Assembly (NCBI GenBank): GCA_964533965.1
Contig: CAZHNN010000002.1
Location: 107,538-171,537 of the forward strand
Origin: an uncultured Clostridia bacterium
GTDB taxonomy: Bacteria; Bacillota; Clostridia; Christensenellales; QAND01
Reading direction: 5' to 3'
DNA: 64,000 nt
Part shown: positions 24,292-43,099 of the stretch, in pieces
Position numbering within the stretch: position 1 is the first letter of the stretch
Layout: every line of letters starts with the position of its first letter
Notes under the pieces: model-generated
What the model was told of the DNA's origin: nothing
Databases searched by the model: none
What the model saw: only the letters and a program-made list of their open reading frames with translations
Position numbers and translations under genes: made by a program

Positions 24292-25467
24292 TTATTCTAC
24301 CGTCACCTTTTCGCAGGTGGCAAGTGCATACTCCGACCATTCGTTGCCGATGCCGGGCAACTCGGGCGGCGAGAACATGCCGCCTTCAGGCTGGTAGTCA
24401 TACTTGCACAGCTCCCGGTGGATCGGCGCCAAATTGTTCATATGGTTTTCATGGATTACGAAATTCGGGATGGAGCATTCCAGATGCAATGCCACCGCGG
24501 TAGAAAGCGGACTTGCACAAACGTGCGCCTGCACGCCGATGTCGTATGTGTGCGCCATGTCGCAGATCTTCTTGCCTTCGGTAAGCCCGCCGGTATTGCC
24601 CAGATCGGGCTGAATGACCTGCACAGAGAGGTTTTCAAAATACGGCATATACTGCCAACGGGTATACACACGCTCGCCCAGCGCAATCGGGATGTTCAAC
24701 TGGTCATGGATCTGCTTTGTCAGCTTTGGCGTAGGCGTATTGGGCTCTTCAAAGTAGAAGATATTGTACTTTTCCACGCGCTTTCCAATTTGCACGGAGG
24801 ATAGCGCGTCGGTATGCGAATGCATCTCCATGATTAAATCGCGCTTGGGACCTATGGCCTCGCGCACGGCCGCCACCCGTTCCTCGATCATATCCAAATA
24901 CCCTGCACCCAACAACCGCGTCCACTGTTCAACCCCCAGCTGTTTGCCGTTGCTGTCATAGGTGAAGAAGTCGAATTTCACTGCGTCGTACCCGTCCGCC
25001 ACGGCTTTTTTCGCCACGTTTGCGTAATCTTCCGTCTTGAAAGCAAGCGTGCGCTCCGGTCCCCAGCCAAACTGCAGCTGGCTTGCGTACGCACGCAGCT
25101 TATCGCGCCGCTTACCACCCAGAAGCTTATAAATAGGTACGCCAAAGAACTTTCCCTTGATGTCCCACAATGCGATGTCGATTGCGCTGATGCCCGCAAA
25201 TACCACGGGACCGCCGTTTTGGCCCCAAAATGTGCTCTTGTAAAGCTTGTCCCAGATAATCTCATGGTCCAGCGGATCCATGCCGATGATCAAGCGCGCC
25301 ATATCCTTTATCATGCCAAACGCTGCGGGAGCGCCGGTATGGATCGCCATCGCCGCTTCCCCGTCGCCATATAATCCCTCGTCGGTATAAACGCGGCATA
25401 CGACCGGCCGCAGCGCCGACGGAACCCTTGTTTTCAGCTGCATGACATCCACTTTGGTGATCTTCAT
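24292..25467 (-). CDS. enolase-superfamily enzyme, mandelate racemase/acid-sugar dehydratase type
   Basis: N-terminal capping domain (MKITKVDVMQLK..), then a barrel with the pattern typical of MR/galactonate-dehydratase-like proteins (..FDFF.., EEP, PIALGER). Specific substrate not assignable. Confidence 0.75.
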   Translation of the reverse strand: MKITKVDVMQLKTRVPSALRPVVCRVYTDEGLYGDGEAAMAIHTGAPAAFGMIKDMARLIIGMDPLDHEIIWDKLYKSTFWGQNGGPVVFAGISAIDIALWDIKGKFFGVPIYKLLGGKRRDKLRAYASQLQFGWGPERTLAFKTEDYANVAKKAVADGYDAVKFDFFTYDSNGKQLGVEQWTRLLGAGYLDMIEERVAAVREAIGPKRDLIMEMHSHTDALSSVQIGKRVEKYNIFYFEEPNTPTPKLTKQIHDQLNIPIALGERVYTRWQYMPYFENLSVQVIQPDLGNTGGLTEGKKICDMAHTYDIGVQAHVCASPLSTAVALHLECSIPNFVIHENHMNNLAPIHRELCKYDYQPEGGMFSPPELPGIGNEWSEYALATCEKVTVE

Positions 25468-28165: not shown

Positions 28166-28855
28166 CTACATGAAGCGCAGGGTGTTGAGCTTGATGCCGG
28201 GGCCCATCGTGCTTGAGAGCACAACGGAACGAAGGTAGGTACCCTTCGCAGCCGATGGTTTGGCCCGAACGATCGCGTCCATTAGCGTGCGGATGTTCTC
28301 CTCAAGCTGTTCAGCCGTAAACGATGCCTTGCCAACGGGAACGTTCACGATGGACGTCCTGTCCACACGGTATTCGACTTTACCGGCTTTGATCTCGCCG
28401 ATGGTCTTTGTCAGGTCGGTTGTGACCGTTCCGCTGCGCGGGTTCGGCATGAGACCGCGCGGTCCAAGGATACGGGCGATGCGGCCCACCAGACCCATCA
28501 TGTCCGGTGTGGCTATCGCTGCGTCAAAGCCCAGCCAGCCGCCCTGGATCTGTGCGATCAACTCTTCGCCGCCAATGAACTCGGCGCCTGCTTCTCTGGC
28601 TTCCGCAGCCTTATCCTCTTTGCAGAAGACCAATATGCGGATCTTCTTACCGGTGCCGTGCGGCAATACCACGGCGCCGCGAACCTGCTGGTCCGCATGG
28701 CGCGGGTCGACGCCCAGGCGTACGGAAATGCCAACGGTCTCATCGAACTTCGCCTTGGCGGTCTGCTTGACCAAAGCCACAGCTTCGTTCGTATCATACC
28801 CTTTGCTCTTATCGAACAGCTTCAGGCTGTCTTGGTAATTCTTTCCCCGTTTCAT
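28166..28855 (-). CDS. rplA: 50S ribosomal protein L1
   Basis: Canonical L1 sequence. Confidence 0.97.
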
Positions 28856-28905
28856 TCTAATCCTCCTTGTGGTTATAGCGCAGTGTACCTGCTCCCACGT
28901 ACTGC

Positions 28906-29331
28906 CTATTCGGCAACGACAACGCCCATGCTGCGGGCTGTGCCTTTTACCATACTCACCGCGGCTTCCAACGAAGCGGCGTTAAGATCGGGCATCTTTG
29001 TCTTGGCAATCTCCTCAACCTGCGCGCGGGTGATGGTGGCCACCTTGTCCCTGTTGGGACGTCCGCTTGCGGTCTGGATGCCGACTGCCTTCTTGATCAA
29101 CACAGCGGCGGGCGGCGTCTTGGTGATGAAGGAGAAAGAGCGGTCGGAATATACCGTGATGACGACGGGAATGACCAGCCCGACATCCTTGGCTGTACGC
29201 TCGTTAAACTCCTTGCAGAATGCCATGATGTTCACGCCGTGCTGGCCCAGCGCGGGGCCGATCGGCGGCGCAGGCGTGGCCTTGCCTGCGTTGACCTGTA
29301 ATTTGACGAATCCGGTAACCTTTTTGGCCAT
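28906..29331 (-). CDS. rplK: 50S ribosomal protein L11
   Basis: Canonical L11 sequence ([29 protein letters not shown]). Confidence 0.97.
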
Positions 29332-29412
29332 GTTGCACCTCTTTTTAAAATGTGGTCAAAGCGGGGAGACTCCCCTCCCACAAACAAACGCCAGAAGCGT
29401 GTGTTTTCTTCC

Positions 29413-29961
29413 TTATACTTTGTGCACCTGCACAAAGTCGAGCTCCACCTGCGTATCGCGACCGAACATGGAGACCATAACCTTGAGTTTCTGGCGATCC
29501 TTGTTGATTTCGGTGATGACGCCTGCAAAGCCTTCCAACGGGCCGGAAGTGATGGTAACGTTCTGTCCCACCTCGACATCCAGCACGATCGAGACGTTCT
29601 CCACGCCCGTCATCCGCACTTCCGTATCGGTAAGCGGAATCGGGCGGCTGCCCGGGCCCACAAAGCCTGTGACGCCGCGGGTATTGCGCACGATGTACCA
29701 GCTCTCGTCGGTCAGGATCATCTTGACCATGACGTAGCCGGGATACACCTTTCTGGCAACGGTTTTGCGCTTTCCGTTTTTAATCTCGATGGTATCCTCC
29801 ATCGGCACCTTGACCTCATGGATCAAATCCTGCATGCCGCGGTTCTCCACCGATTTTTCCAAATTGGCCTTAACCTTGTTCTCATATCCGCTGTACGTAT
29901 GCACAACATACCAGAGCGGTTGTGTATCCGGCGAAGCATTCTGTGAATTTGAAGGGGTCAC
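29413..29961 (-). CDS. nusG: transcription termination/antitermination factor NusG
   Basis: NGN plus KOW pattern (WYVVHTYSGYENKV.., ..GPLEGFAGVI). Located between secE and rplK. Confidence 0.95.
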   Translation of the reverse strand: MTPSNSQNASPDTQPLWYVVHTYSGYENKVKANLEKSVENRGMQDLIHEVKVPMEDTIEIKNGKRKTVARKVYPGYVMVKMILTDESWYIVRNTRGVTGFVGPGSRPIPLTDTEVRMTGVENVSIVLDVEVGQNVTITSGPLEGFAGVITEINKDRQKLKVMVSMFGRDTQVELDFVQVHKV

Positions 29962-29974
29962 GATTACACCTCCC

Positions 29975-30346
29975 CTAGCCGGTGATGAGTCTTAGCAACT
30001 CCGTGAAGCCAAGATCCAACAGGCCTACAACCACGGCTAAGATGGTCACAAACGCCAGCACGATGCCGGTGTATTTGGCAAGGTCCTTCTTGCTCGGCCA
30101 TGTCGCCTTTTTCAATTCCGCAATCATTTCCCGGAAATATTTGACAATCCGGTCAATGCGGTATCCAAGCTTGCCGCGCCTGGCGGGCTTGGCGGTCGCC
30201 TTCTGCTGCTTGTCCTTGGCATCCTTGGAAATCTGCTTCGTGTCCTTGGCGTCTTTCCCCTTGGACGGAAGCTTGCCCGTATCCTTGGACAGCTGTTTCG
30301 CCTTGGCGTCCGGCTTGTTGACTTTGTCTTTTGCCATGGTGTTCAC
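29975..30346 (-). CDS. secE: preprotein translocase subunit SecE with Lys-rich N-terminal extension
   Basis: The C-terminal ~60 aa match SecE (..ELKKATWPSKKDL..TILAVVVGLLD). The N-terminal ~60 aa are K/D/A-rich. Located between rpmG and nusG. Confidence 0.9.
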   Translation of the reverse strand: MNTMAKDKVNKPDAKAKQLSKDTGKLPSKGKDAKDTKQISKDAKDKQQKATAKPARRGKLGYRIDRIVKYFREMIAELKKATWPSKKDLAKYTGIVLAFVTILAVVVGLLDLGFTELLRLITG

Positions 30347-30516: not shown

Positions 30517-30738
30517 TGCTGAACACCTCCTGATGGATTAAAAAGTCTGCACGATAAATAAAGCCCCCCTAAGGGGATTCCTGATAGAAGATACCATATA
30601 GACGGGTTGCTGTCAACGATTTTTTATAAGAGAAAGCGGCGTGCTCATCAAAAAATCCCGCATTTCAAGCGGCTTTTTCACTCGTTGCATTCTTATGATA
30701 TAATAAACGTAATAACTGTACAAGTTGGGGGAACGGTC

Positions 30739-31680
30739 ATGAAGCGACAGGCGTTTATCGATTATCTCACTGGCAAGCCCGCAAAGCGTATTCCCGGCTC
30801 TTTCTGGTTCCACAATACCGAGGAAAAATGGGAAGGTGAATCCGCGAAAAAGGCCCACCTCGATATGATCGAAGCCACAGACATCGATTTTTTGAAGATC
30901 ATGGACGAGATCCGCTTTACCTTCCCCGATATCAAAACGGCATCGGACTGGGATCATTACCTGCCGCCAAAGCGCAACGCCTGGCATTATGAAAAGCAGT
31001 TCGATGTGATCAAGAGGATCACCGACGCGATTGCCGGCGGCATGTTCACGTATACCACTATCTTCTCCCCGCTTCGCTGCGTCGGCATGCCCTGTGGGTA
31101 CGAGATGATTGAGACCCATATGGCGCAAAACCCGAAGGGCGTTGATAAGGCGTTTGCCGCAATGGCAGAGTCGCTTTCCCAGTATGCGGTCGATTGCATG
31201 GCCGCAGGTGCCGATTCGATCTATTTTTCAACAAAGGGCGCCGAGCACGGCCGATTCCCAAAAGAGGTGTTTGAAGCGATCGTGCTGCAGCATGACTTGG
31301 AATTGTTCAACGCAGTCTGCGAGGCGACGCCATACGCGATGCTGCACATCTGCGGCTTTGACATGGAGCTGCCATATTATTACAACTGGCCGGGAATGGC
31401 CGTGAACTGGGACGTACACAACAACACGCTCAAGCTGCATGAAGGGGCGAAGCTGTTCCGCCATCCCGTGCTGTGCGGCGGCATGGACGACAGGTCCGGT
31501 GAGCTTGTGGACGGATCCGACGAACAGGTCGAGCAGAAAGTGCAATCCGTCGTGGAATCGTTTTTGGCAGACAACTCCGGCAAGCGCATGATCTTGGGTG
31601 CCGACTGCACGCTGCCTACCGAAGTGGATTTTCACCGGATCCGCGTCGCATTGGCAAAGCTTCGGACCTATTCGCTATAA
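30739..31680 (+). CDS. uroporphyrinogen decarboxylase (URO-D) family protein, possibly a methyltransferase of the MtaA/CmuA type
   Basis: URO-D-like pattern over the full length. ATG 30739 (MKRQAF) follows GGGGGAA, and an extended -10 (TGATATAAT) lies at 30696-30704. Confidence 0.6.
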   Translation: MKRQAFIDYLTGKPAKRIPGSFWFHNTEEKWEGESAKKAHLDMIEATDIDFLKIMDEIRFTFPDIKTASDWDHYLPPKRNAWHYEKQFDVIKRITDAIAGGMFTYTTIFSPLRCVGMPCGYEMIETHMAQNPKGVDKAFAAMAESLSQYAVDCMAAGADSIYFSTKGAEHGRFPKEVFEAIVLQHDLELFNAVCEATPYAMLHICGFDMELPYYYNWPGMAVNWDVHNNTLKLHEGAKLFRHPVLCGGMDDRSGELVDGSDEQVEQKVQSVVESFLADNSGKRMILGADCTLPTEVDFHRIRVALAKLRTYSL

Positions 31681-32108: not shown

Positions 32109-32726
32109 ATGAAAGACGGTCTAATGGAATTGTTTACAGCCATCGAAGGGCATTTGCTTAAGGACGAGCGCCCCTCCGTTTACCTCGAGCACGCGGCGGA
32201 ACTGCCGGAATTTGGCAGCCATCCGTTCTTGATGCTGTTAAGGTTGAAGGGTTCGCCGCAGCCTCCCAAATACCACCCCGAAGGGGACGTGTGGAAACAT
32301 ACCATGCTGGTCATCGATGAGGCTGCCGAGCGCAGGGATCAAAGCAATGATGCGCGCACCTTCATGTGGGCGGCGCTGCTGCACGACCTTGGCAAGCCGG
32401 GCACGACGAAGATCAGGAACGGAAAGATCATCTCCTACGGGCATGACACGTTGGGCGCAAAATTGGCACGCGAGTTTTTGCAGTTCTTCAGCTGTGACGA
32501 GAGTTTCATTGAGGAAGTCGTGAAGCTTGTTCAATGGCACATGCAATTGCTCTACTTTGAAAAGTCGCTTCCATTTTTTAAAGAAGCGGAGCTACGGGAA
32601 AATGCAAACATCGATGACGTCGGACTGCTGAATCTGTGCGATAGGATCGGCAGGAAGAATTCGGATAAACAGCAGGAACAACAAAGAGTAGATCGGTTTG
32701 TTCGCAAACTAAAAGGCGATTCGTAA
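32109..32726 (+). CDS. HD domain-containing phosphohydrolase
   Basis: HPEGDVWKHT...ALLHDLGKP motifs. Confidence 0.75.
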   Translation: MKDGLMELFTAIEGHLLKDERPSVYLEHAAELPEFGSHPFLMLLRLKGSPQPPKYHPEGDVWKHTMLVIDEAAERRDQSNDARTFMWAALLHDLGKPGTTKIRNGKIISYGHDTLGAKLAREFLQFFSCDESFIEEVVKLVQWHMQLLYFEKSLPFFKEAELRENANIDDVGLLNLCDRIGRKNSDKQQEQQRVDRFVRKLKGDS

Positions 32727-33006: not shown

Positions 33007-33197
33007 ATTTTTTCTCCTTATATCATTCATTGAATACTTTTTTCTTTCCATTGTAATCTTAGTGTACAAGATAAATCCTGTAAATGCTAACTGATCACAG
33101 TGACTATATTGTACATATTATTCTTTCTTCTGCTTAATCCATCTGAAGGCTTAATTTTTCAATTGATGAAAGAATTGAACATTTTTCTATACATAAC

Positions 33198-33226
33198 TTG
33201 AATTTACAGTTGCAAATAACAATAAT
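33198..33226 (+). promoter_or_regulatory. candidate promoter of the enolase-like/kinase-like operon
   Basis: TTGAAT-N17-AATAAT in an AT-rich region about 80 nt upstream of 33307. Weak match. Confidence 0.3.
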
Positions 33227-33306
33227 ATAAATTGGAGATCGGACTAAGTCAAAAGCCCGAATGAAAAGCGAGTATCGTGCAAATTACTTCAAGGAGGAAG
33301 ACTGCC

Positions 33307-34596
33307 ATGTCAGGAACAGAGATCAAAAGCGTAACGGCGCGACAGGTGATGACCCGCAGGCACCATCCAGGTGTCGAAGCAACGGTAGTGACGGAGAATG
33401 GAGCAGAAGGCGTTGCCGTATGTACGGCGGGTGTCTCCGTCGGGACACACGAGATAAAATTCTCTTATGACGGCGGAGTCCGATGGGAAGGCAAAGGCGT
33501 ACAAGGCGCCGTAGACAACGCGAACAATGTGATCGCTCCCAAATTGATCGGGTTGAACTGCGCAAACCAATGGGCAATTGACCAGGCTATGCTGGATATA
33601 TGTCCTGACGCCAAAGTAACGCTGGGCGGCAATGCTGTTGCGGCGGTATCTGCAGCTGCACTGAAAGCGGGCGCCAAAGCCTTGGACATTCCGCTGTACC
33701 AGCATATCGGAGGGGCAAATGCAATGTATCTGCCCGTTCCCGGGATCATCGCGGCCATCGGCAGCGAGCGTTACGGCGGCGACGTCAGACGTTCAGGCGG
33801 CAAGCCCTCCTATGCCCTGATGTGCTACGGGTTCGATACATTTTCCGACGCTTCGTATGCCGGCTGGGAGCTGGATACAAAATGGCGCAAGGTATTAAGC
33901 GATAAGTTCGACCTTTCCGTCGGCGGCGGCGGAGCCGGCATGCCAAACTTCCCGAGGGGGCTCTTCAAGAGCGACCGCGAGATTTGGGATCTGATGGTGG
34001 ATACCATTGACAAGGCCGGATATAACGGCAAGGTAGGCATTCAAGTGGACATCGCCGCCGATACGTTCTACAACCAGGAAGACGGGATATATTACGGCCT
34101 GTTGAGCGCAGAACCCAAGACGCGCGACGATCTCTTGAGACTGTATGAAGAAATGGTTGCCAATTGGCCGTTTGTGGACATTGAAGATCCGTTCAACGAA
34201 AACGATTATGAAAGCCATGCGGAGCTGGTCAGGCGCGTTGACATCCAGATCGTTGGCGACGACCTGTTCACCACCAACCCCGAGCGCGTGGCATACGGCA
34301 TTTCAAAGGGCGCCGCAAACACCGTATTGCTCAAGGTTAACCAGGTTGGCACCATCACAGAGGCGCTGGAGATGATACAGCTGGCCTATAAGCACAACTA
34401 CGGCGTCATGCCTTGCGAGAGCCGAGGCGAAGGAGATGCGATCGCTGATTATTGCGTGGGCATCAACGCGGGATCGGTGAGAGAGAGCGCTATTGGCGAC
34501 GCAGGCAACCGCTTTTTGAAGATCGAGGCCGAGTTAGGCAGCCGCGCCAAGTTCATCGGTGCGAAAGGATTTAAGGGCAAACGGTTCCAAAGCTGA
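33307..34596 (+). CDS. divergent enolase-family protein A (not a canonical enolase)
   Basis: Collinear with enolase: AGVSVGTHE loop, VDIAADTFY, DIEDPF, IVGDDLFTTN, LLKVNQVGT. Signature SHRSGETED is replaced by PCESRGEGD and GDEGG by GGGGA. ATG after AAGGAGGAAG. Confidence 0.85.
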   Translation: MSGTEIKSVTARQVMTRRHHPGVEATVVTENGAEGVAVCTAGVSVGTHEIKFSYDGGVRWEGKGVQGAVDNANNVIAPKLIGLNCANQWAIDQAMLDICPDAKVTLGGNAVAAVSAAALKAGAKALDIPLYQHIGGANAMYLPVPGIIAAIGSERYGGDVRRSGGKPSYALMCYGFDTFSDASYAGWELDTKWRKVLSDKFDLSVGGGGAGMPNFPRGLFKSDREIWDLMVDTIDKAGYNGKVGIQVDIAADTFYNQEDGIYYGLLSAEPKTRDDLLRLYEEMVANWPFVDIEDPFNENDYESHAELVRRVDIQIVGDDLFTTNPERVAYGISKGAANTVLLKVNQVGTITEALEMIQLAYKHNYGVMPCESRGEGDAIADYCVGINAGSVRESAIGDAGNRFLKIEAELGSRAKFIGAKGFKGKRFQS

Positions 34597-34619
34597 AATA
34601 CTGCCAGGAGGGAACGACC

Positions 34620-36074
34620 GTGCGAATTAAAAATGCCACCGATCTGACCTCTCACGGGGACATAACAGGCCGTAGTGACATGGTAGCAATCCTTGAAGCA
34701 GGGCTACAGGCGGCCGACCCCTACAACAACACCAAACGGCTGATCAAACGCGAAGGCGACAAGCTTTATATCGGCAATACCGATTTCGAGGCGAATGACG
34801 ATCCGAGGAGCGGCATCGACGTCATTGACCTCCATCAAATCGACCGGATTTTCGTTGTGGGCGCAGGAAAGGGATCGCAGCGCGTAGGCCTTGCATTGGA
34901 AGAAGTGCTGGGCGAACACCTCACCGGCGGACATCTGATCGGCAAACACGGCGACGAGATCATCGTGAAGAAGATTGGCGTCACGCTGGCGGGACACCCG
35001 ACACCGGACGAATACTGCTGCATCGGCTGCCGCAGGATACTGGAATTTGCCAAAGATATAACCAATCGCGATCTTGTATTTACGGTGGGCGCCAACGGCT
35101 TCTCCTCGCTGCTAACGCTGCCGCCTGACGGCATCACGGTAGATGAAGTTAAAGAACTGACCTATATGATGCAGATTGAAAAGGGCGTAGCCACCGAAGA
35201 GCTGAACACCATCCGAAACCACATCGATCTGATGAAGGGCGGACGTTTCTCAAGGTATTTCGCTCCTGCAAAGATGGTGCATATCGAAGCCATCGATATC
35301 GGGAATGCGCGGGCTGGGGTCCACGCCAACTTCCACGATATGCTGAAAAACAACATCTGGCTTCACAATTTGTGCGAAGGTTCCACGTTTGAGGATGCGA
35401 TTAGAACCCTCAAATTCTGGGATGCTTGGGAGTTGACACCGCTGTCCATCCGGCGGCACCTCGAAGGGGCACGCCCCGAAGATGAAACAGTTAAATACGA
35501 CGAATTTATGAAAATGGATTTTCGAGTCTTTGGCATCATGCCGAAAGACAAAACGATTTTCCCCGCTGTCAAACAAAAGGCCGCGGAGTTGGGTTATACG
35601 CCTTATCTTTTCGCGGAATTTCTGCGATTGGAGGCAAGCCAAGCCGGGCTTGCCATATCCAACATAGCCTGCACCATCCAGGATGTCCATGAACCTGTGA
35701 GCCCTCCTTGCTGCCTGATTTCCGGCGGAGAATTACTGGTGACGGTCGGAGACGAACTGGGTGTAGGCGGCAGAAACCAGGAATACGTGCTGTCCGCAGC
35801 GCTGAATATCGGCGGGAGGAACATCGTGTTCGGTGCCGTCGACACGGACGGGACGGACGGTCCTGGCGGATACATCGCTAACGATGTTCCGGATTGCCTC
35901 GCCGGCGGCATCACAGACGGCTGCACACTCCAAGAGGCAAAGGAAAGGCGCGTGGATATACGCGAGGCGCTTAAAACCCATGCCACATCGAAAGCTCTTT
36001 GGGAACTCAAAAGCAGCATCCATGCTGAGCACAACATCAGCGTGGGCGATCTCGGCATCGTGCTCATTCGATAA
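34620..36074 (+). CDS. MOFRL/DUF4147 family glycerate 2-kinase-like protein A
   Basis: VVGAGKGSQRV N-terminal motif and C-terminal GGELLVTV..GVGGRNQEYVLSAAL..AVDTDGTDGPG, typical of class-II glycerate 2-kinases (TtuD/MOFRL). GTG start after AGGAGGGAA. Confidence 0.8.
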   Translation: MRIKNATDLTSHGDITGRSDMVAILEAGLQAADPYNNTKRLIKREGDKLYIGNTDFEANDDPRSGIDVIDLHQIDRIFVVGAGKGSQRVGLALEEVLGEHLTGGHLIGKHGDEIIVKKIGVTLAGHPTPDEYCCIGCRRILEFAKDITNRDLVFTVGANGFSSLLTLPPDGITVDEVKELTYMMQIEKGVATEELNTIRNHIDLMKGGRFSRYFAPAKMVHIEAIDIGNARAGVHANFHDMLKNNIWLHNLCEGSTFEDAIRTLKFWDAWELTPLSIRRHLEGARPEDETVKYDEFMKMDFRVFGIMPKDKTIFPAVKQKAAELGYTPYLFAEFLRLEASQAGLAISNIACTIQDVHEPVSPPCCLISGGELLVTVGDELGVGGRNQEYVLSAALNIGGRNIVFGAVDTDGTDGPGGYIANDVPDCLAGGITDGCTLQEAKERRVDIREALKTHATSKALWELKSSIHAEHNISVGDLGIVLIR

Positions 36075-36098
36075 TTAAGTCAAAGGGGGAACCCGCCG

Positions 36099-37562
36099 AT
36101 GGGCATTCTCAACATGCAGCAGCTCACTTCCCATGGCAACGTACGCGGCAGACAGGACGCTTTGTCGATTCTACAAGCGGCACTTGCAGCAGCCGATCCT
36201 TACCACAATGCGATGAACCTTCTGCGCCGTGAGGGCAACATGCTCTATATCGGCAATCCGGAATTTGAGGCAGAAAATGATCCGAATTCCGGTATCGAGA
36301 TAGTGGACCTTGACAAGATCGGCAGAATCTACGTCGTAGGTGCAGGCAAGGGCGTACAGCGTATTGCAAAAGCGATTGAAGATGTTCTGGGGGATCGTTT
36401 GACCGGTGGCCATGTGATCGGAAAGCACGGCGACGAGATCATCCTGACAAGGATCGGAGTGACGCTTGGCGGCCATCCGACCCCGGACGAATACTGCGCG
36501 CAGGGCTGCAGAAAGATATTAGAACTCGCAAAAGACATCAAGGAAAACGATTTGGTGTTCACTATCGCCGCAAATGGGGTAAGTTCCCTTCTTACACTGC
36601 CTGCGGACGGCATCACCATCGATGAGGTCAAGCAATTGACCCATATGATGCAGATCGAAAAGGGCGTTCCGACATACGATCTGAATACCATCCGCAATCA
36701 CATCGATCAGATGAAGGGCGGAAAGATCTCGCGTGCTTTTTATCCCGCCAGAATGATGCACATCGTGGCGATCGATGTCAACCGGTACAGCCTTATCAAT
36801 CCACGGCACGATTACTATCACCTGATGGAAACCAACCGCTGGCTTCACAACCTGCCGGAAGGCACCACATTTTCCGAGGCAGTGGATGTGTTGCATTACT
36901 ATGACGCTTGGAATTTGTGCCCAAAGTCCATCCGCGACTGTTTGACAAAGGCCGATCCCCGGAACGAGACGGTGAAGTTCGAGGAATTTTCCAAAATGAA
37001 TTTCCGGGTTTTCGGCATCATGCCCGAACATCTGCATTTCTTGCCCGTGGCGAAGCGCAAAGCGGAAGAACTGGGATATAAGGCGATCCATCTATGCGGC
37101 ATGCTGCAGGCCGAGGCTAAGGACGCTGCGCTTACCATCGGCGCCATCGCCCGAAGCGTTGAAGAGCGGGGCGAACCGTTCAAACCGCCCGTAGCGCTGT
37201 TTACAACAGGGGAACTTTTGGTAACGGTGAACCAGTATAAGGGCGTCGGCGGAAGAAACCAGGAGTATGTCTTGACGGCCGCCACCAAAATTGAGGGCAG
37301 CGAAAAGATCGTTTTTTGCGCTGTGGATACAGATGGCACGGACGGCCCCGGCGGGCTTAATTTACCGGGTGCGCCGAATTGCCTTGCGGGCGGCATAGCA
37401 GACGGTTTTCTTCTGCGGGACGCCAGGGAGATAGGGGTGGACGTCCGCGAGGCACTCAAGACCCACGCCACATCGGAAGCACTTTGGAGACTCGACAGCG
37501 GCATCCATACGAGCCAAAACATCAGCCTTTGCGATCTGGGCATTGTGCTGGTGATGGCATAA
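36099..37562 (+). CDS. MOFRL/DUF4147 family glycerate 2-kinase-like protein B
   Basis: Paralogue of 34620-36074 with the same motifs (VVGAGKGVQRI, GVGGRNQEYVLTAAT, AVDTDGTDGPG). SD AAAGGGGGAA. Confidence 0.8.
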   Translation: MGILNMQQLTSHGNVRGRQDALSILQAALAAADPYHNAMNLLRREGNMLYIGNPEFEAENDPNSGIEIVDLDKIGRIYVVGAGKGVQRIAKAIEDVLGDRLTGGHVIGKHGDEIILTRIGVTLGGHPTPDEYCAQGCRKILELAKDIKENDLVFTIAANGVSSLLTLPADGITIDEVKQLTHMMQIEKGVPTYDLNTIRNHIDQMKGGKISRAFYPARMMHIVAIDVNRYSLINPRHDYYHLMETNRWLHNLPEGTTFSEAVDVLHYYDAWNLCPKSIRDCLTKADPRNETVKFEEFSKMNFRVFGIMPEHLHFLPVAKRKAEELGYKAIHLCGMLQAEAKDAALTIGAIARSVEERGEPFKPPVALFTTGELLVTVNQYKGVGGRNQEYVLTAATKIEGSEKIVFCAVDTDGTDGPGGLNLPGAPNCLAGGIADGFLLRDAREIGVDVREALKTHATSEALWRLDSGIHTSQNISLCDLGIVLVMA

Positions 37563-37593
37563 ATCATTCCAAACATTCAAAGGAGACGGTAAA

Positions 37594-38880
37594 ATGTCAG
37601 CGAAGACGATCAAGTCGGTCTGGGCAAGAGAAGTGTACACCCGCCGCGGTCATCCCGGAGTGGAGGCCATTGTCGTGACGCAGAGCGGTGCACAGGGCCG
37701 TGCAGTTTGCACATCGGGTATCTCCATCGGCACGCACGAGGTCAAGTTCAATCTGGACGGCGGCAAGAAGTGGAACGGTAAGGGCGTCATGGGCGCCGTA
37801 AATAATGTGAAGAACATCATAGCACCGGTACTCATCGGCATGGATGCCACCAAACAGTTCGAAATAGACAACGCGATGCTCGGCATTTGCGAAAACCCCA
37901 AGGGCAATATAGGCGGCAACGCGATCGCTGCGGTTTCCGCTGCTGCCCTCAAAGCGGGCGCAAAGGCGCTGGATATTCCGCTGTACCAGCACATCGGCGG
38001 CGCCAATGCGATGTATCTGCCGGTGCCTGGCGCGCCCGCTATGGCGGGCAACGAGCGCTTCGGCGGCGGCGTGACAACGCCCGGTGCCAAGCCGACGTAT
38101 TCATTCATGTGCTACGGATTTGACCGGTATTCCGACGCTTCCTACGCCTGCTGGGAAATCTACCAGGTGTGGAGCAAGCTGATGATGAAGAACAACTATT
38201 TCCTCTATCCGGGTTCAACTAATTTCTTTGGTATGCCGCCGGGCGCCATCGAGACCGACGAGCAGTTATGGGAGATGATGGCGGATACCATCCGAAAAGC
38301 GGGCTATGAGGGCAAGGCAGGTATCCAGTGTGACTGTGCTTCGGATACCTACTATGACCGTGACGAGAAACTCTACAAGGGACTCTTCACAAAAAAGGAC
38401 AAGAACCGCGACGAGATGCTCGAACTGTACGTCAACGCCGTCAAGAACTATCCGTTTGTCATCCTCGAGGATCCGTTTTATGAGGACGACTACGAAAGCC
38501 ACGCACTGCTCAGGCAGTCTGTTGACATTCAGATCGTCGGTGACGACCTTTTTACCACCAACCCCGAACGTGTCGCATACGGCGTCTCAAAAGGTGCCGC
38601 AAACACTGTTCTGTTGAAGGTCAACCAAGTCGGCACCATCACCGAGTCGCTTGAGATGATCCAGCTGGCTTACAAACACGGCTATGGCGTCATGCCGTGT
38701 GAGAGCCGCGGTGAGGGCGATTCCATCGCGGATTACAGCGTCGGAATCAACGCCGGATCCATCCGCGAGTGCGGCATCGGCGACATCGCCAACCGTTTCC
38801 TCGAAATCGAGATGGAACTTGGTTCCAGTGCCAAGTTCATCGGCGCAAAGGGTCTTAAGGGCAAACGCTTCGAAAAGTAA
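37594..38880 (+). CDS. divergent enolase-family protein B
   Basis: Paralogue of 33307-34596 with the same retained and lost motifs. SD AAAGGAGA. Confidence 0.85.
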   Translation: MSAKTIKSVWAREVYTRRGHPGVEAIVVTQSGAQGRAVCTSGISIGTHEVKFNLDGGKKWNGKGVMGAVNNVKNIIAPVLIGMDATKQFEIDNAMLGICENPKGNIGGNAIAAVSAAALKAGAKALDIPLYQHIGGANAMYLPVPGAPAMAGNERFGGGVTTPGAKPTYSFMCYGFDRYSDASYACWEIYQVWSKLMMKNNYFLYPGSTNFFGMPPGAIETDEQLWEMMADTIRKAGYEGKAGIQCDCASDTYYDRDEKLYKGLFTKKDKNRDEMLELYVNAVKNYPFVILEDPFYEDDYESHALLRQSVDIQIVGDDLFTTNPERVAYGVSKGAANTVLLKVNQVGTITESLEMIQLAYKHGYGVMPCESRGEGDSIADYSVGINAGSIRECGIGDIANRFLEIEMELGSSAKFIGAKGLKGKRFEK

Positions 38881-38930
38881 GAACAAGAAAAAGGCCGCCA
38901 ATTGGCAGCCTACATCGCGTCTATCATCGG

Positions 38931-38993: not shown

Positions 38994-39944
38994 TCAGTTT
39001 AGAGTGGATAGAACAAGCGTCCACAAAGGCAGCGTTAGGATCGAAAAAACCGTTGAAACGAGCACGGATTTCGCGCAACTGCTCACATCCGATTTGAAAT
39101 TCAACGCAAAGACGACGGCGCTTGACGCTGTGGGCATCGCGCAATACAGGATGGAAATATTCCGTACAAGCGGATCGATGTTTACCATACGCAACAACAG
39201 CAGCGCAAGAAACGGAGCCACCGCAAGTCTGACAAAAGTTTGAAACAGAATCTTCTTGTCCAAAAAGGCATCCTTGAAACCCTTCTGCGGAAGTGCCAAT
39301 CCCGATATGATCATTCCAAGCGGTGAGGCTGTAGCGGCCAATATCGAAATTGTTTTTGAAACGAAAAATGGTAGCGGGATCCTTAAAAAATAGATGCATA
39401 GGCCGATCGGTACGGACAGGACCGCGGGATTGATCAAGGCCTTTTTAATATTGCTCAGTATATATTGCCTTTTTTGTGCTTTGTCCTTCATTGTACCGAT
39501 GCCTTTGATGAGAAAGCCGCTGAGAATATAGTACGATATTCGAATGGGCACCGTAAAAATGGATATATAGAAAAGGCCTTTTTGTCCGTATAAAGCCTCC
39601 ATCACGGGAAACGCCATATACGTAAAATTCGGATAAATGATGCCAAAGCGCAATACCTGGGCTTTATCGCCTGCACACTTGGTCAGTCGATTCATGAGGG
39701 TTCCGACGAAGAACATGACGACCAATGAAACTGAGGCAATGATGACCAAATCGACGATGTTTATTATATCGTTCGTTGCACTTTCCAATCGCATCGAGTT
39801 TATGATCATCGCCGGAAAGATGAATTTGAAAACCAGTGAAGATAGCGAACTTAAGAAATTAGCATCCACCACTTTAAATCTGTTGGCAAAAAAGCCAATG
39901 CACATGCAAATCAATAAAATCAACGCAAAATTCAGCGCGTTCAT
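38994..39944 (-). CDS. AEC (auxin efflux carrier) family permease
   Basis: About 10 TM helices with the Mem_trans-like pattern. ATG 39944 (MNALNF) follows AAAGGGGA, and the track ORF overshoots by 82 codons. AT-rich. Confidence 0.8.
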   Translation of the reverse strand: MNALNFALILLICMCIGFFANRFKVVDANFLSSLSSLVFKFIFPAMIINSMRLESATNDIINIVDLVIIASVSLVVMFFVGTLMNRLTKCAGDKAQVLRFGIIYPNFTYMAFPVMEALYGQKGLFYISIFTVPIRISYYILSGFLIKGIGTMKDKAQKRQYILSNIKKALINPAVLSVPIGLCIYFLRIPLPFFVSKTISILAATASPLGMIISGLALPQKGFKDAFLDKKILFQTFVRLAVAPFLALLLLRMVNIDPLVRNISILYCAMPTASSAVVFALNFKSDVSSCAKSVLVSTVFSILTLPLWTLVLSTLN

Positions 39945-40031
39945 GTTTTTATCCCCTTTTTCCTGCCATACTTTGAGCATACACATTAGCACTAAATATC
40001 TATCAATTCTTTTCATTAATTGGTTATTTGT

Positions 40032-40059
40032 TTGCAAATATTGAGATATCCCGTACAAT
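40032..40059 (+). promoter_or_regulatory. candidate promoter of the AraC-family gene
   Basis: TTGCAA-N16-TACAAT about 30 nt upstream of the ATG at 40090. Confidence 0.4.
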
Positions 40060-40089
40060 ATTAGAGGAGATCTCTGAAAGGAGAAGACA

Positions 40090-40938
40090 ATGGATAGCTT
40101 ACAATCTGCCAAACCACGCAATAGGAATATATTTTTTAGGTATAGCTCGGATATGAACTGGAAGATGGATAAATACCATTTCCACGACATGTACGAAGTT
40201 TATTATTCATTAACCAACAATGTTGATATTTTTGTGAACGATGTCATCTATCAGGTGTCAAAAGGTACGATTTTGGTTTTCAATACTGCGGATATCCATA
40301 GGACCATACCTTTGGATAAAACTCCATACAATCGATTTATCATTCATTTTAACCCCGAATATATGAAAGATCTTTGCACTGCCCAGACCGATCTTTTGGA
40401 TTGCTTTATCAATCGCGGACCGCAATTTAACCACAGCCTCCATCTTGATTCTGAACAGATGGAGCAATTCGCAGCCTTGGTCGATAAAGCCAAGCGCTAT
40501 CAAAGCAATGCGTTGTATGGCCAAGATATTTATCTTAAGCTCACGCTTGCCGAAATACTCCTTTTTATCAATCCGCTATATCAGGATAGCATCCGGTGTT
40601 TTTCGCAAAAAAGCAAAAGGGAATTCGAAAGAATATATCCGATTCTTCAGCATATTCAGACAAACATTTCAGACAACCTCTCTCTGGACAGTTTGTCCGA
40701 AAGATATTTCATCAATAAATTTTACCTGATAAACCTTTTTAAAAAAGCCACCGGATTCACTATTACCGAATATATCATTCAGACAAGGATCATGAAGGCA
40801 TGCGAACTATTGAAAAGAGGGCTGTCTGTACAGCAGGTTGGCGAGCTGGTTGGGTTTAACGACAACTCGCATTTTATCCGCACTTTTAAAAAGCATGTCG
40901 GCTTGCCGCCCAAACGGTACGCACAGCAATTCATATAG
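40090..40938 (+). CDS. AraC family transcriptional regulator (cupin sensor plus HTH)
   Basis: N-terminal AraC-binding cupin pattern (YHFHDMYEVYY) and C-terminal double HTH (..FNDNSHFIRTFKKHVGLPP). SD AAAGGAGAAG. Confidence 0.85.
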   Translation: MDSLQSAKPRNRNIFFRYSSDMNWKMDKYHFHDMYEVYYSLTNNVDIFVNDVIYQVSKGTILVFNTADIHRTIPLDKTPYNRFIIHFNPEYMKDLCTAQTDLLDCFINRGPQFNHSLHLDSEQMEQFAALVDKAKRYQSNALYGQDIYLKLTLAEILLFINPLYQDSIRCFSQKSKREFERIYPILQHIQTNISDNLSLDSLSERYFINKFYLINLFKKATGFTITEYIIQTRIMKACELLKRGLSVQQVGELVGFNDNSHFIRTFKKHVGLPPKRYAQQFI

Positions 40939-41417: not shown

Positions 41418-42932
41418 CTATTTCCTATAGCTCCCAATCGATCCGCTATCCTTCAAAACGACGTCATGTGCGCCGCCCTCGACGATGCTGGTGGCGGAGA
41501 CGAGCGTCAACCTTGCCTTTTGCTGCAGCTCGGGAACGGTTACAGCCCCGCAGTTGCACATCGTAGAGCGCACTTTGCCCAGCGTAAGCCCAACGTTGTC
41601 CTTGAGGCTTCCGGCATAGGGCACATAGGAATCCACGCCTTCTTCAAACGAAAGACCCTGTGACCCGCCCAGGTCATATCGCTGCCAGTTGCGTGCGCGG
41701 TTACTGCCTTCGCCCCAGTATTCCTTCATATAGCTGCCGTTGATGACCACCCTATTTGTCGGGCTCTCGTCAAAACGGGCAAAATAGCGGCCCAGCATCA
41801 GGAAATCCGCACCCATCGCCAGCGCCAGCGTCACATGGTGGTCGTGCACGATGCCGCCGTCGGAGCAAACCGGGATATAGACACCCGTCTGTTCGTAGTA
41901 GAGATTTCTTGCCTGGCATACGTCGATCAACGCCGTGGCTTGTCCACGCCCGATGCCCTTCTGCTCGCGCGTGATGCAGATGGACCCTCCACCGATGCCG
42001 ACTTTCACAAAATCCGCGCCGGCGTTTGCCAAAAATCGGAATCCCTCGCCGTCCACCACGTTTCCAGCGCCGCATTTTACGCTATCGCCGTACTTCTCGC
42101 GGATGAATGCAAGCGTTTGTTGCTGCCATTCGGAAAACCCTTCGGAGGAATCTATGCAGAGCACATCCGCTCCCGCTTCGACCAGCGCGGGCACACGGTC
42201 TTTGTAATCGCGCGTGTTGATGCCTGCGCCAACGACATACCGTTTCTGCTCGTCCAGAAGTTCAAGCGGGTTGCTCTTATGCGATTCATAGTCCTTGCGA
42301 AACACGAGATATAAGAGGTTGCCATCGTCGTCCACGATGGGCAGCGTGTTTAGCTTGTGATCCCAGATGATGTCGTTTGCCCGGCTCAGCGTGGTGTTCT
42401 TGGGCGCATAGATTAAATCCTTGAGCGGCGTCATGAATTCCGAGACCTTCGTGTCCAATGACATGCGGCTAACACGGTAATCGCGGCTTGTAACGATGCC
42501 CAGCAGCTTGCCGTTTGTACTGGCGTCGGATGTCACTGGCACCGTGCTGTGCCCGGTCTTATCCTTGAGCTTGAGGACGTCCTGCAACGTCATATCCGGG
42601 CTCACGTTGGAATCCGACACCACGAACCCCGCCTTGTACGCCTTGGCACGGGCCACCATCGCAGCCTGGCTCTGAATGCTCTGCGAACAATAGATGAACG
42701 CGATGCCGCCCTCCTTAGCAAGCGACACCGCCATCTTTTCGTCCGAAACGGACTGCATGATGGCGGAGGTGAGAGGTATATTCATATGAAGCGCCGCTTC
42801 TTCGCCTTTTTTATATTTCACGACAGACGTGCGCAAACTTACGTTGGACGGTATGCATTTCGCCGAGGAGTACCCCGGGATCAACAGGTATTCGTTGAAG
42901 GTTCTCGAAGGTTCATCAAAATAGTACGCCAT
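41418..42932 (-). CDS. guaB: IMP dehydrogenase family protein with CBS pair
   Basis: IMPDH barrel with catalytic loop [20 protein letters not shown] and an inserted CBS domain pair. Confidence 0.75.
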
Positions 42933-43031
42933 CGTCTTCTCTCCTTTGTCCCTCGGTTATCTAAACAGGCCTTTTGAACGATCCCTTTGTATTCTGACCA
43001 TTGTAGCGGCGTAAAACCAAAAGCACAAGGG

Positions 43032-43068
43032 AACAAATGTTCCTTTGTGCTTTTTATTTTATATATCT
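43032..43068. terminator. 13-bp hairpin terminator after glmM
   Basis: AGCACAAGGGAAC-AAAT-GTTCCTTTGTGCT, flanked by AAAA and TTTTT. Confidence 0.75.
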
Positions 43069-43099
43069 CTTTTGCTATTGCAACTGGCTTTTCTCTTCG

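Follow-up and report, generated by a model that had tools for sequence, protein, structure and literature searches.

Enolase (EC 4.2.1.11) is defined by a two-domain fold (PF03952 and PF00113; equivalog model TIGR01060), carboxylate ligands for Mg2+, a loop carrying Ser39 and the catalytic base Lys345, together with a network formed by Glu168, Glu211 and His373 and further residues that bind 2-phosphoglycerate (2-PG). To our knowledge, the enolase subgroup is usually treated as single-function. Class II glycerate 2-kinases, such as Thermotoga maritima TM1585 (Protein Data Bank (PDB) 2B8N), Pyrococcus horikoshii PH0495 (1X3L) and the Thermoproteus tenax glycerate kinase (GK), combine DUF4147 and MOFRL domains and phosphorylate a 2-hydroxyl group beside a carboxylate at the expense of ATP.

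Here, we report an analysis of a four-gene cassette, enoA-gckA-gckB-enoB, in which two enolase-like genes enclose two genes of the glycerate kinase type. The cassette occupies positions 33307-38880 (forward strand) of a 64,000-nucleotide stretch of contig CAZHNN010000002.1 from an uncultured Clostridia bacterium, referred to below as the window. The two enolase-like proteins share the fold, the Mg2+ ligands, the Ser39 loop and Lys345 with canonical enolase, but lack the Glu168, Glu211 and His373 network and the 2-PG binders, fall into a separate clade and score below the equivalog cut-off; unlike canonical enolases, they are linked to MOFRL genes. By sequence, the two enolase-like genes form part of a large enolase branch that is so far uncharacterised, and the cassette quite probably encodes a kinase-coupled enolase-type enzyme that acts on something other than D-2-phosphoglycerate.

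Residue changes in the two enolase-like proteins

The product of enoA (33307-34596, forward strand; 429 amino acids) matches Pfam Enolase_N (E = 1.3e-31) and Enolase_C (E = 1.6e-54), as does the product of enoB (37594-38880, forward strand; 428 amino acids; E = 1.6e-35 and 7.1e-50), which is 66% identical to it. Against TIGR01060, the two score 292.9 and 291.3 bits, respectively, under the cut-off of 300. The AlphaFold model of enoA has a predicted local distance difference test (pLDDT) value of 90 and template modelling (TM) scores of 0.86-0.88 to enolase structures. Active-site residues were compared by HMMER against solved enolases and in a MAFFT alignment with the yeast, Escherichia coli, Methanocaldococcus jannaschii and Bacillus subtilis enolases and 122 homologues, in which the yeast and E. 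coli sequences were verified against PDB chains; the comparison was repeated on 170 loci from genomes and metagenomes. Positions are given in yeast enolase numbering unless marked enoA.

An initial inspection of the DNA without database searches (the sequence-only reading) had proposed that both copies keep the mobile-loop Ser, the three metal ligands and the proton-abstracting Lys, and both alignment methods agree. Ser39 (enoA S44, in GVSVG/GISIG), the metal ligands Asp246, Glu295 and Asp320 (enoA D248, E293 and D318) and the base Lys345 (enoA K343) are retained in the two proteins, and the three carboxylate ligands and Lys345 are present in 122 of 122 homologues in the MAFFT alignment. One motif, quoted there as an identical VGDDLFVTN, is in fact VGDDLFTTN, with an exchange of Val324 for Thr that is invariant in the family.

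The losses named in the same reading, of Glu168, Glu211 and His373 along with replacement of Lys396 by Arg, were likewise recovered in both copies by HMMER and MAFFT and on the 170 loci. In enoA, the motif GGKPSY (33796-33813, forward strand) takes the place of canonical xxIQEF and includes a four-residue insertion. The inserted loop ends in an invariant Lys166, where canonical enolases have Leu or Ile, directly before the Pro that replaces the carboxylate-binding Gln167 in both copies (enoA P167); Glu168, of the 3-hydroxyl (3-OH) network, is Ser in enoA (S168) and Thr in enoB, which otherwise bears the same signature (GAKPTY, 38083-38100, forward strand). The loss of Glu168 therefore stands, although the register first given for it was off by one: Q-E-F-M-I corresponds to P-S-Y-A-L after the invariant Lys. 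For canonical (V/I)SHRSGET, both copies have PCESRGEG (34411-34434 in enoA and 38695-38718 in enoB, forward strand), where Ser-His373-Arg374-Ser375 reads C370-E371-S372-R373 in enoA; His373, also of the 3-OH network, is thus Glu in both, and Arg374 and Ser375 are swapped to Ser and Arg. For canonical QIKT, enoA has SVRE (34474-34485, forward strand) and enoB SIRE (38758-38769, forward strand), with the carboxylate-binding Lys396 changed to Arg (enoA R392) and Thr397 to Glu (enoA E393). At or near the site of the general acid Glu211, no Glu occurs in any alignment of this loop, which is variable across the family and not reliably alignable; in the enoA model, it forms the sole very-low-confidence stretch (pLDDT <50).

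Several features go beyond the sequence-only reading, namely, the exchange of His159 for Arg in both copies (enoA R155), the inserted loop with its terminal Lys166 and the Pro at position 167, the Arg374/Ser375 swap, the changes of Thr397 to Glu and of Glu47 to Phe, and the two MOFRL genes between the copies, which turn out to be the key to interpretation. His159, Gln167, Arg374, Ser375 and Lys396 read H, Q, R, S and K in 116 of 116 canonical enolases, and Arg, Pro, Ser, Arg and Arg in every member of the clade that contains the window proteins. Taken together, the known active-site positions and those adjacent to them carry a net charge about +2 to +3 above that of enolase. The invariant Glu397 and Lys166 could in principle be relocated catalytic groups. 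Glu at position 373 was also considered as a relocated general acid and was ruled out, given that this position is Ser, Asp, Glu or Asn across the clade.

Thus, the division proposed at the outset, with the enolate-forming half of the active site kept and the hydroxide-expelling half lost, is borne out as a residue pattern, whereas the new chemistry read into it is a prediction from these residues. Judging from what is retained, enoA and enoB probably share with enolase the first half-reaction, that is, enolisation of a 2-phospho acid.

A multi-phylum clade paired with MOFRL genes

The best 120 protein-database matches are 61-70% identical to the window proteins. Relatives with a named source come from metagenome-assembled genomes (MAGs) of Anaerolineae, Clostridiales and Thermodesulfobacteriota, and several are called only 'enolase C-terminal domain-like protein' by NCBI. 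Across the 170 loci, almost all of which derive from MAGs or metagenomes and whose genes were called by a simple longest open reading frame (ORF) heuristic, enolases form three sharp classes at 14 key positions. Canonical enolases (116 sequences) read SHQEEDEDKHRSK followed by T, S, A or F; class 2 (10 sequences) reads SLQEEDEDKERSK followed by T or N; and class 3, which includes the window proteins, reads S R P S/T x D E D K x S R R E in about 50 sequences among the matches listed, a lower bound on family size. Because the same signature recurs in about 50 sequences on unrelated contigs, the class 3 pattern, as far as sequence comparison goes, is not a matter of chance.

Class 3 is monophyletic in 40 of 40 bootstraps of a neighbour-joining tree, the single tree method used, so that the two window copies fall into a distinct clade when examined by the phylogeny that the sequence-only reading had suggested as a check. 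Its members are 33-38% (about 36%) identical to canonical enolases, which are approximately 62% identical among themselves, and come from anaerobic bacteria and archaea, namely, Clostridia, Anaerolineae, Dehalococcoidales, Spirochaetales, Thermodesulfobacteriota, Bathyarchaeota and one Nitrososphaeria MAG. HMMER searches against solved structures found no family member in the PDB, and tblastn searches of PLSDB plasmids returned none either, all matches there being <38% identical and annotated as ordinary eno. Literature searches yielded no description of the clade, of a sulfolactate kinase, of a phosphosulfolactate lyase or of an L-glycerate kinase/enolase route.

Purifying selection acts strongly on each of the four window genes, with ratios of nonsynonymous to synonymous substitution rates (dN/dS) of 0.06-0.07 against their orthologues on a related contig (L089; loci are cited by L numbers) and 0.12-0.13 between paralogues, values that are approximate because dS is saturated. 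Selection rather than decay had been argued initially from the occurrence of the same substitutions in two diverged paralogues. These ratios (0.06-0.13 overall), the invariance of the substitutions across a multi-phylum clade and the almost constant adjacency of a kinase-like partner point the same way. It is, then, highly improbable that the window genes are decaying or encode non-catalytic pseudo-enzymes: although some second copies elsewhere have lost Lys345 or metal ligands, neither window copy lacks a metal ligand, Ser39 or Lys345, dN/dS is 0.06-0.12, and the same signature recurs without variation in several phyla.

At L018, L019, L102 and L107, enolase-like genes outnumber kinase genes by two to one. 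The second copies at L018:11320-12600 and L019:11311-12591 have Val in place of Lys345, the one at L102:3635-4915 lacks metal ligands as well as Lys345, and the extra copy at L107:11305-12444 is highly diverged (27% identity). The sequences of these extra copies suggest non-catalytic partner subunits, perhaps of a heterodimer.

Of 36 class 3 genes flanked on each side by 1.5 kb or more of sequence, 34 have a MOFRL gene no farther than 3.2 kb away, as opposed to none of 81 canonical enolases (Fisher p = 2e-27). Copy numbers of the two partners mostly match, at 1:1 in most loci, 2:2 in the window, L089 and L104, and 3:3 in L091, where three MOFRL genes followed by three class 3 enolase-like genes form a tandem array (L091:4117-12594). 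The expansion of the module in L091 suggests several related substrates.

In the window, gckA (34620-36074, forward strand; 484 amino acids) and gckB (36099-37562, forward strand; 487 amino acids; 60% identical to gckA) encode proteins in which Pfam finds both the DUF4147 and the MOFRL domains, and which are the predicted 2-hydroxy-acid kinase partners of enoA and enoB, respectively. GckA matches PH0495 (181 bits) and TM1585 over its full length, and the motifs DTDGTDGP and GGxNQE are conserved in the gck proteins, which are likewise predicted to carry out ATP-dependent 2-hydroxyl phosphorylation. The two differ from class II glycerate 2-kinases in being about 35% identical to them and 45-55 residues longer, and in scoring far under the cut-offs of 550 and 670 of the NCBIfam glycerate 2-kinase models (91 and 78 bits for gckA, and 78-113 for the two gck proteins). 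Around residue 157, gckA has ANGFSS where PH0495 has SGGGS, which may reflect a changed substrate or phosphate-binding loop.

Class 2 enolases resemble the window clade in their adjacency to MOFRL genes, found in five of the five loci with enough flank, but keep most canonical residues. They differ from canonical enolases only in the changes of His159 to Leu and of His373 to Glu, with Glu168, Glu211, Arg374, Ser375 and Lys396 kept, and are 51% identical to them. They occur in Bathyarchaeia, Nitrososphaeria and metagenomes (L016:1971-4635 on the reverse strand, L031, L112-L117, L119, L125 and L132) and often adjoin genes for a LarA-family (nickel-pincer) racemase, as in L112, L115 and L117, or a D-2-hydroxyacid dehydrogenase. 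Such loci may represent a dedicated module of racemase, glycerate kinase and enolase in archaea and uncultured bacteria. Class 2 was considered as the sister and ancestor of the window clade; the neighbour-joining tree gives this 0 of 40 bootstraps. An archaeal contig, L016, carries a near-canonical class 2 enolase with its MOFRL partner and a class 3 pair within 10 kb, so that the two pairs are unlikely to be redundant and to do the same job.

The class 2 loci bear on the simplest reading of both homologies, namely, ordinary use of glycerate, in which the MOFRL proteins would be D-glycerate 2-kinases and the enolase-like proteins would still dehydrate D-2-phosphoglycerate through relocated groups (Glu397 for Glu168, Lys166 or Asp/Glu373 for Glu211, and Arg375 for Arg374). 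Some of the changes do look like relocations of the same group by one position (Arg374/Ser375 to Ser/Arg, and Glu168 with Thr397 to Ser with Glu), the TIGR01060 scores are barely under the cut-off, and the sugar-acid contexts described below resemble glucarate/galactarate and non-phosphorylative Entner-Doudoroff routes that end in a glycerate 2-kinase. Nevertheless, we regard this reading as improbable. D-2-phosphoglycerate is handled by the housekeeping enolase, which leaves a strictly co-inherited, highly diverged extra enolase unexplained, and L016 holds a near-canonical pair as well. Moreover, position 373 and the Glu211 loop are unconserved in the clade and so supply no relocated acid. 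Yeast enolase variants Glu168Gln, Glu211Gln and Lys345Ala, studied by Poyner and colleagues in 1996, reportedly lose about 10^4- to 10^5-fold in activity.

Gene context and candidate substrates of the module

The neighbours of class 3 genes are heterogeneous, all with sugar, sugar-acid or organic-acid functions. The commonest context, found in at least 12 Clostridial loci, is [Ldh_2 - KDPG-type aldolase - SDR] - aldo-keto reductase - MOFRL - enolase - aldehyde dehydrogenase - PfkB kinase - FucI-like isomerase - class II aldolase - DUF4867. From these assignments, the operon reads as a pathway that would convert an aldose to a ketose, a ketose-1-phosphate and then dihydroxyacetone phosphate (DHAP) and an aldehyde, the latter giving a 2-hydroxy acid that feeds the module. 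Organic-acid transporters (TRAP, TAXI, TTT, AEC, MFS and ABC) are frequent neighbours, and Ldh_2 or D-2-hydroxyacid dehydrogenase genes adjoin the pair in approximately 10 loci. Other neighbours include a LarA-family nickel-pincer isomerase in L090 (NF052515, 497 bits), MR_MLE and GD_AH dehydratases, a FAH-family hydrolase, DHDPS- or HpcH-type aldolases, and a lactonase with an SDR. In Thermodesulfobacteriota, Dehalococcoidales and the lineage of the window, the module stands essentially alone. The common denominator points to a chiral 2-hydroxy acid, either imported or derived from the 'tail' of a sugar, and to a product that needs no further dedicated enzyme, and therefore to phosphoenolpyruvate (PEP) as the likely product.

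We tentatively favour, with a probability of roughly 0.4, a 3-sulfolactate 2-kinase coupled to a phosphosulfolactate sulfite-lyase with PEP as its product. Sulfolactate corresponds to glycerate with a sulfo group at C3, and its phosphorylation by a glycerate kinase homologue, with sulfite then eliminated by an enolase homologue, would be economical in chemical terms. The cassette would comprise two copies of a two-enzyme module. First, the MOFRL protein, by homology to class II glycerate 2-kinases, would use ATP to phosphorylate the 2-hydroxyl of a 3-substituted lactate. Next, as the retained residues suggest, the enolase-like protein would bind the 2-phospho acid via two Mg2+ ions (Asp246/Glu295/Asp320, and Ser39), and Lys345 would take the C2 proton to give the enolate. 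Finally, in keeping with the residues lost and gained, the C3 substituent would depart without a general acid, leaving PEP for central metabolism; for sulfolactate, the route would run through 2-phospho-3-sulfolactate to PEP and sulfite.

Several features of the predicted active site fit this scheme. In what would be the 3-OH pocket, two carboxylates and a His are gone, and Lys166 and Ser/Thr168 are gained, with Arg159, Arg375 and Arg396 nearby; a pocket so altered would suit a leaving group that is both anionic and self-sufficient. Because sulfite needs no general acid, its departure accords with the absence of Glu211, Glu168 and His373, and the extra negative charge of the substrate fits the gain of Arg159 and Lys166, the change of Lys396 to Arg and the two lost carboxylates. 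Working through the Cahn-Ingold-Prelog (CIP) priorities, we find that D-glycerate and the (S)-sulfolactate derived from sulfoquinovose share one spatial configuration, so that Lys345 could act on the latter exactly as in enolase. The two pairs of the window would serve two enantiomers or two related substrates.

For several enzymes of the Clostridial operon, the nearest characterised relatives, though distant, are enzymes of sulfoglycolysis. The top solved match of the PfkB kinase is the E. coli sulfofructose kinase YihV (105.7 bits, versus 82 for ribokinases), and the two top solved matches of the class II aldolase are characterised sulfofructose-1-phosphate aldolases (8Q58 and 8Q57; SqiA). 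The isomerase has a sole NCBIfam match, to the sulfoquinovose isomerase SftI (108 bits), and the best NCBIfam match of Ldh_2 is L-sulfolactate dehydrogenase (252 bits, versus 244 for ureidoglycolate dehydrogenase). The DUF4867 protein belongs to the SftX/SqvB family, described as an accessory protein rather than an isomerase (PMC9594981). On these matches, the operon pathway would end in sulfolactaldehyde and then, via the aldehyde dehydrogenase, sulfolactate. An unrecognised organosulfonate breakdown route in strict anaerobes, in which a sulfolactate 2-kinase derived from a glycerate kinase and an enolase-derived lyase produce PEP and sulfite, can be suggested only with caution, somewhat more so than the two activities themselves.

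A number of observations weigh against sulfolactate. The matches to sulfoglycolytic enzymes are all distant: the margin of the aldolase and the kinase over the next families is only about 20 bits, the isomerase compares with a cut-off of 700, and Ldh_2 barely separates the two dehydrogenases named above. Only one medium-sized DUF4867 cluster is linked to sulfoquinovose (PMC11968277), which ruled out this domain as a sulfoquinovose-specific marker. Known sulfolactaldehyde dehydrogenases possess an Arg/Arg or His/Asn pair proposed to bind the sulfonate (PMC10599462), whereas the operon enzyme, aligned to E. coli GabD, has Ile and Gly at these positions; its assignment as a typical sulfolactaldehyde dehydrogenase is therefore unsupported. 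Among the ORFs scanned near about 40 clade loci, a scan outside which many neighbouring ORFs lie, none encodes a GH31 sulfoquinovosidase, a sulfite exporter or a sulfite reductase. The search for these markers and for SuyAB near the module gave only a split GD_AH enzyme in L018/L019, with galactarate dehydratase as its best match, and the sulfite-oxidase-family genes of L006 and L017 described below. Some known sulfoquinovose clusters similarly lack GH31 (PMC9594981). In many loci, the module is surrounded by an ordinary sugar-acid cluster (MR_MLE, GD_AH and FAH enzymes, aldolases and lactonase) that could equally deliver glycerate. Position 373 is Asp or Glu in approximately half of the family, which is awkward for an anion pocket, and the phosphate-binding positions are rearranged as well (Arg374/Ser375 swap, and His159 to Arg), a shift that a change at C3 alone should not need. 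Furthermore, addition of sulfite to PEP is probably favourable, and elimination would require that PEP and sulfite be drained.

Further observations were made around the module. Immediately 5' of Ldh_2 in the Clostridial operon, a conserved ORF of 686 amino acids is present (L014:1616-3676 and L092:3436-5496, both forward strand) for which neither Pfam nor NCBIfam gives a match; it could be an unrecognised glycosidase or another pathway entry enzyme. At L006:498-1133 (forward strand), a short molybdoenzyme of the sulfite oxidase family (Oxidored_molyb) is encoded directly upstream of the MOFRL-enolase pair, and a homologue is found at L017:1747-2478 (reverse strand), about 8 kb from an unpaired class 3 gene. 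These sulfite-oxidase-family genes are the only sulfur-related neighbours seen, and the one in L006 counts in favour of sulfolactate.

The rearranged phosphate site and the aldehyde dehydrogenase direct attention to the mirror image of the enolase substrate. L-glycerate, supplied by the tail of L-series sugars or sugar acids, would be converted by the kinase to 2-phospho-L-glycerate, and the enolase-like protein would be one of two enzymes: a dehydratase specific for the L form, in which Lys345 serves as acid and a new base, for example Lys166, acts from the other face, or a 2-phosphoglycerate racemase shorn of the elimination residues. Enolase-superfamily racemases have two-base sites, which Lys166 and Lys345 recall. 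A mirror-image substrate would explain the rearrangement of the phosphate-binding as well as the 3-OH residues, and a product that the housekeeping enolase cannot use explains the obligatory pairing. Glyceraldehyde or glycerate can arise from both the isomerase-kinase-aldolase-aldehyde dehydrogenase context and that of sugar-acid dehydratase, aldolase and FAH hydrolase, and the pair of anion-binding residues seen in sulfolactaldehyde and succinate-semialdehyde dehydrogenases is missing from the operon aldehyde dehydrogenase. Still, the charge of this substrate is the same as that of 2-PG, which leaves about two to three gained positive charges unexplained, and no conserved general acid for hydroxide is evident besides Lys345 or Glu397. 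A racemase function would be redundant with the LarA-type racemase that adjoins the pair in L090, and the literature search gave no L-glycerate kinase or L-2-PG pathway. On balance, we consider the L-glycerate route a doubtful alternative, though one to be taken seriously.

The residue and charge arguments made for sulfolactate apply in the same way to any 2-phospho acid whose C3 substituent is anionic or leaves readily for another reason, such as 3-O-sulfoglycerate from 6-O-sulfated sugars or 2,3-bisphosphoglycerate, and the substrate might also be longer or dicarboxylic (tartrate or an aldonate). Dicarboxylate-type transporters (DctPQM, TAXI, TctABC and AEC) and aldarate-type dehydratases occur as neighbours, the variable and often shortened Glu211 loop could make room for a larger substituent at C3, and up to three tandem paralogous pairs suggest several related substrates. 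However, a product other than PEP would need dedicated enzymes, none of which is conserved with the pair; elimination of phosphate from 2,3-bisphosphoglycerate would waste ATP; and we know of no precedent for a 3-O-sulfoglycerate pathway. Substrates of this kind seem unlikely, and 3-sulfolactate remains our tentatively preferred candidate.

Genomic setting and relation to known systems

The four genes of the cassette are arranged head to tail with intergenic gaps of 23-31 nucleotides (nt). An AGGAGG ribosome-binding site (33292-33297, forward strand), 9 nt 5' of the enoA ATG, is situated at the end of an AT-rich intergenic region of about 240 bp; together with the N-termini of homologues, it backs the start at 33307. 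A promoter scan was uninformative (14 matches versus 10 +/- 2.7 expected from a shuffled background), and the promoter-like matches upstream of enoA (33094-33121 and 33198-33226) are weak and not in excess over that background. A G+C-rich hairpin followed by a T-run (38892-38911), between the convergent enoB and transporter genes, resembles a terminator and marks the end of the four-gene operon.

The transporter is an AEC-family (Mem_trans) membrane protein (38994-39944, reverse strand). Its longest ORF (38994-40190, reverse strand; 398 amino acids) overlaps the start of a divergent AraC-family regulator gene (40090-40938, forward strand) by approximately 100 nt, and the Pfam match begins at residue 90; therefore, the true start is probably the Met near 39944. 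The transporter is a possible uptake or efflux partner of the cassette and the AraC-family protein a possible regulator of the locus, both weakly linked: in the syntenic relative L089, neither gene is present beside the cassette, and FeoAB genes are found instead. Upstream, a URO-D-family protein with faint similarity to methylcobalamin:coenzyme M methyltransferase (30736-31680, forward strand) and an HD/HDIG-domain protein (32109-32726, forward strand), which has an HD-domain counterpart upstream in L089, show no evident link to the module. Farther upstream is a housekeeping set comprising L1, L11, NusG and SecE (28166-30346, reverse strand) and, beyond the ribosomal-protein genes, about 8 kb from the cassette, a 391-amino acid ORF (24292-25467, reverse strand) that clusters by BLAST with the MR_MLE (mandelate racemase/sugar-acid dehydratase) genes adjoining the module in other loci. 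Downstream lie genes for inosine monophosphate dehydrogenase (IMPDH) and a phosphoglucosamine mutase-like protein (41418-44428, reverse strand), identified, like the housekeeping set, by eye from translations. The IMPDH-mutase side of the window is syntenic with L089; therefore, the cassette resides in a conserved chromosomal region with no obvious island, and GC content around it (0.50-0.54) is not anomalous.

If the cassette indeed acts on something other than D-2-phosphoglycerate, the clade would be a clear instance of functional innovation within the enolase subgroup, and many metagenomic "enolase" and "glycerate kinase" annotations would be wrong. Should the substrate be sulfolactate, the module would be the first with a non-enolase function in this subgroup and would add a sulfite-releasing step to the sulfoquinovose part of the sulfur cycle, which would matter for the formation of sulfite and H2S by microbial communities of the gut, the rumen and sediments; fermenters that were thought to excrete C3 sulfonates would then be able to carry sulfoglycolysis to completion. 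Should it be L-glycerate, the module would fill a missing step in the breakdown of sugars and sugar acids of the L series.

Two known enzymes would be functional analogues of the favoured lyase step or of the route as a whole, and both belong to folds and families unrelated to enolase. ComA, the phosphosulfolactate synthase of coenzyme M biosynthesis, catalyses the Mg2+-dependent addition of sulfite to PEP, of which this step would be the reverse. SuyAB, the sulfolactate sulfo-lyase, likewise converts sulfolactate to a product at the C3 keto-acid level and sulfite, and is the only system given for C-S cleavage of sulfolactate in a January 2026 review (PMC12890257). Compared with SuyAB, the proposed route would add an ATP-dependent kinase step and yield PEP rather than pyruvate. 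The nearest characterised relatives of the Clostridial operon enzymes, all distant, are found in sulfo-Embden-Meyerhof-Parnas (sulfo-EMP) and sulfo-EMP2 clusters (YihV, SqiA, SqvD/SftI, SqvB/SftX and SlaB). These known clusters excrete sulfolactate or dihydroxypropanesulfonate (DHPS); the Clostridial operon differs from them in having no sulfoquinovosidase or sulfonate exporter among the scanned ORFs and in carrying, in addition, the kinase and enolase-like pair.

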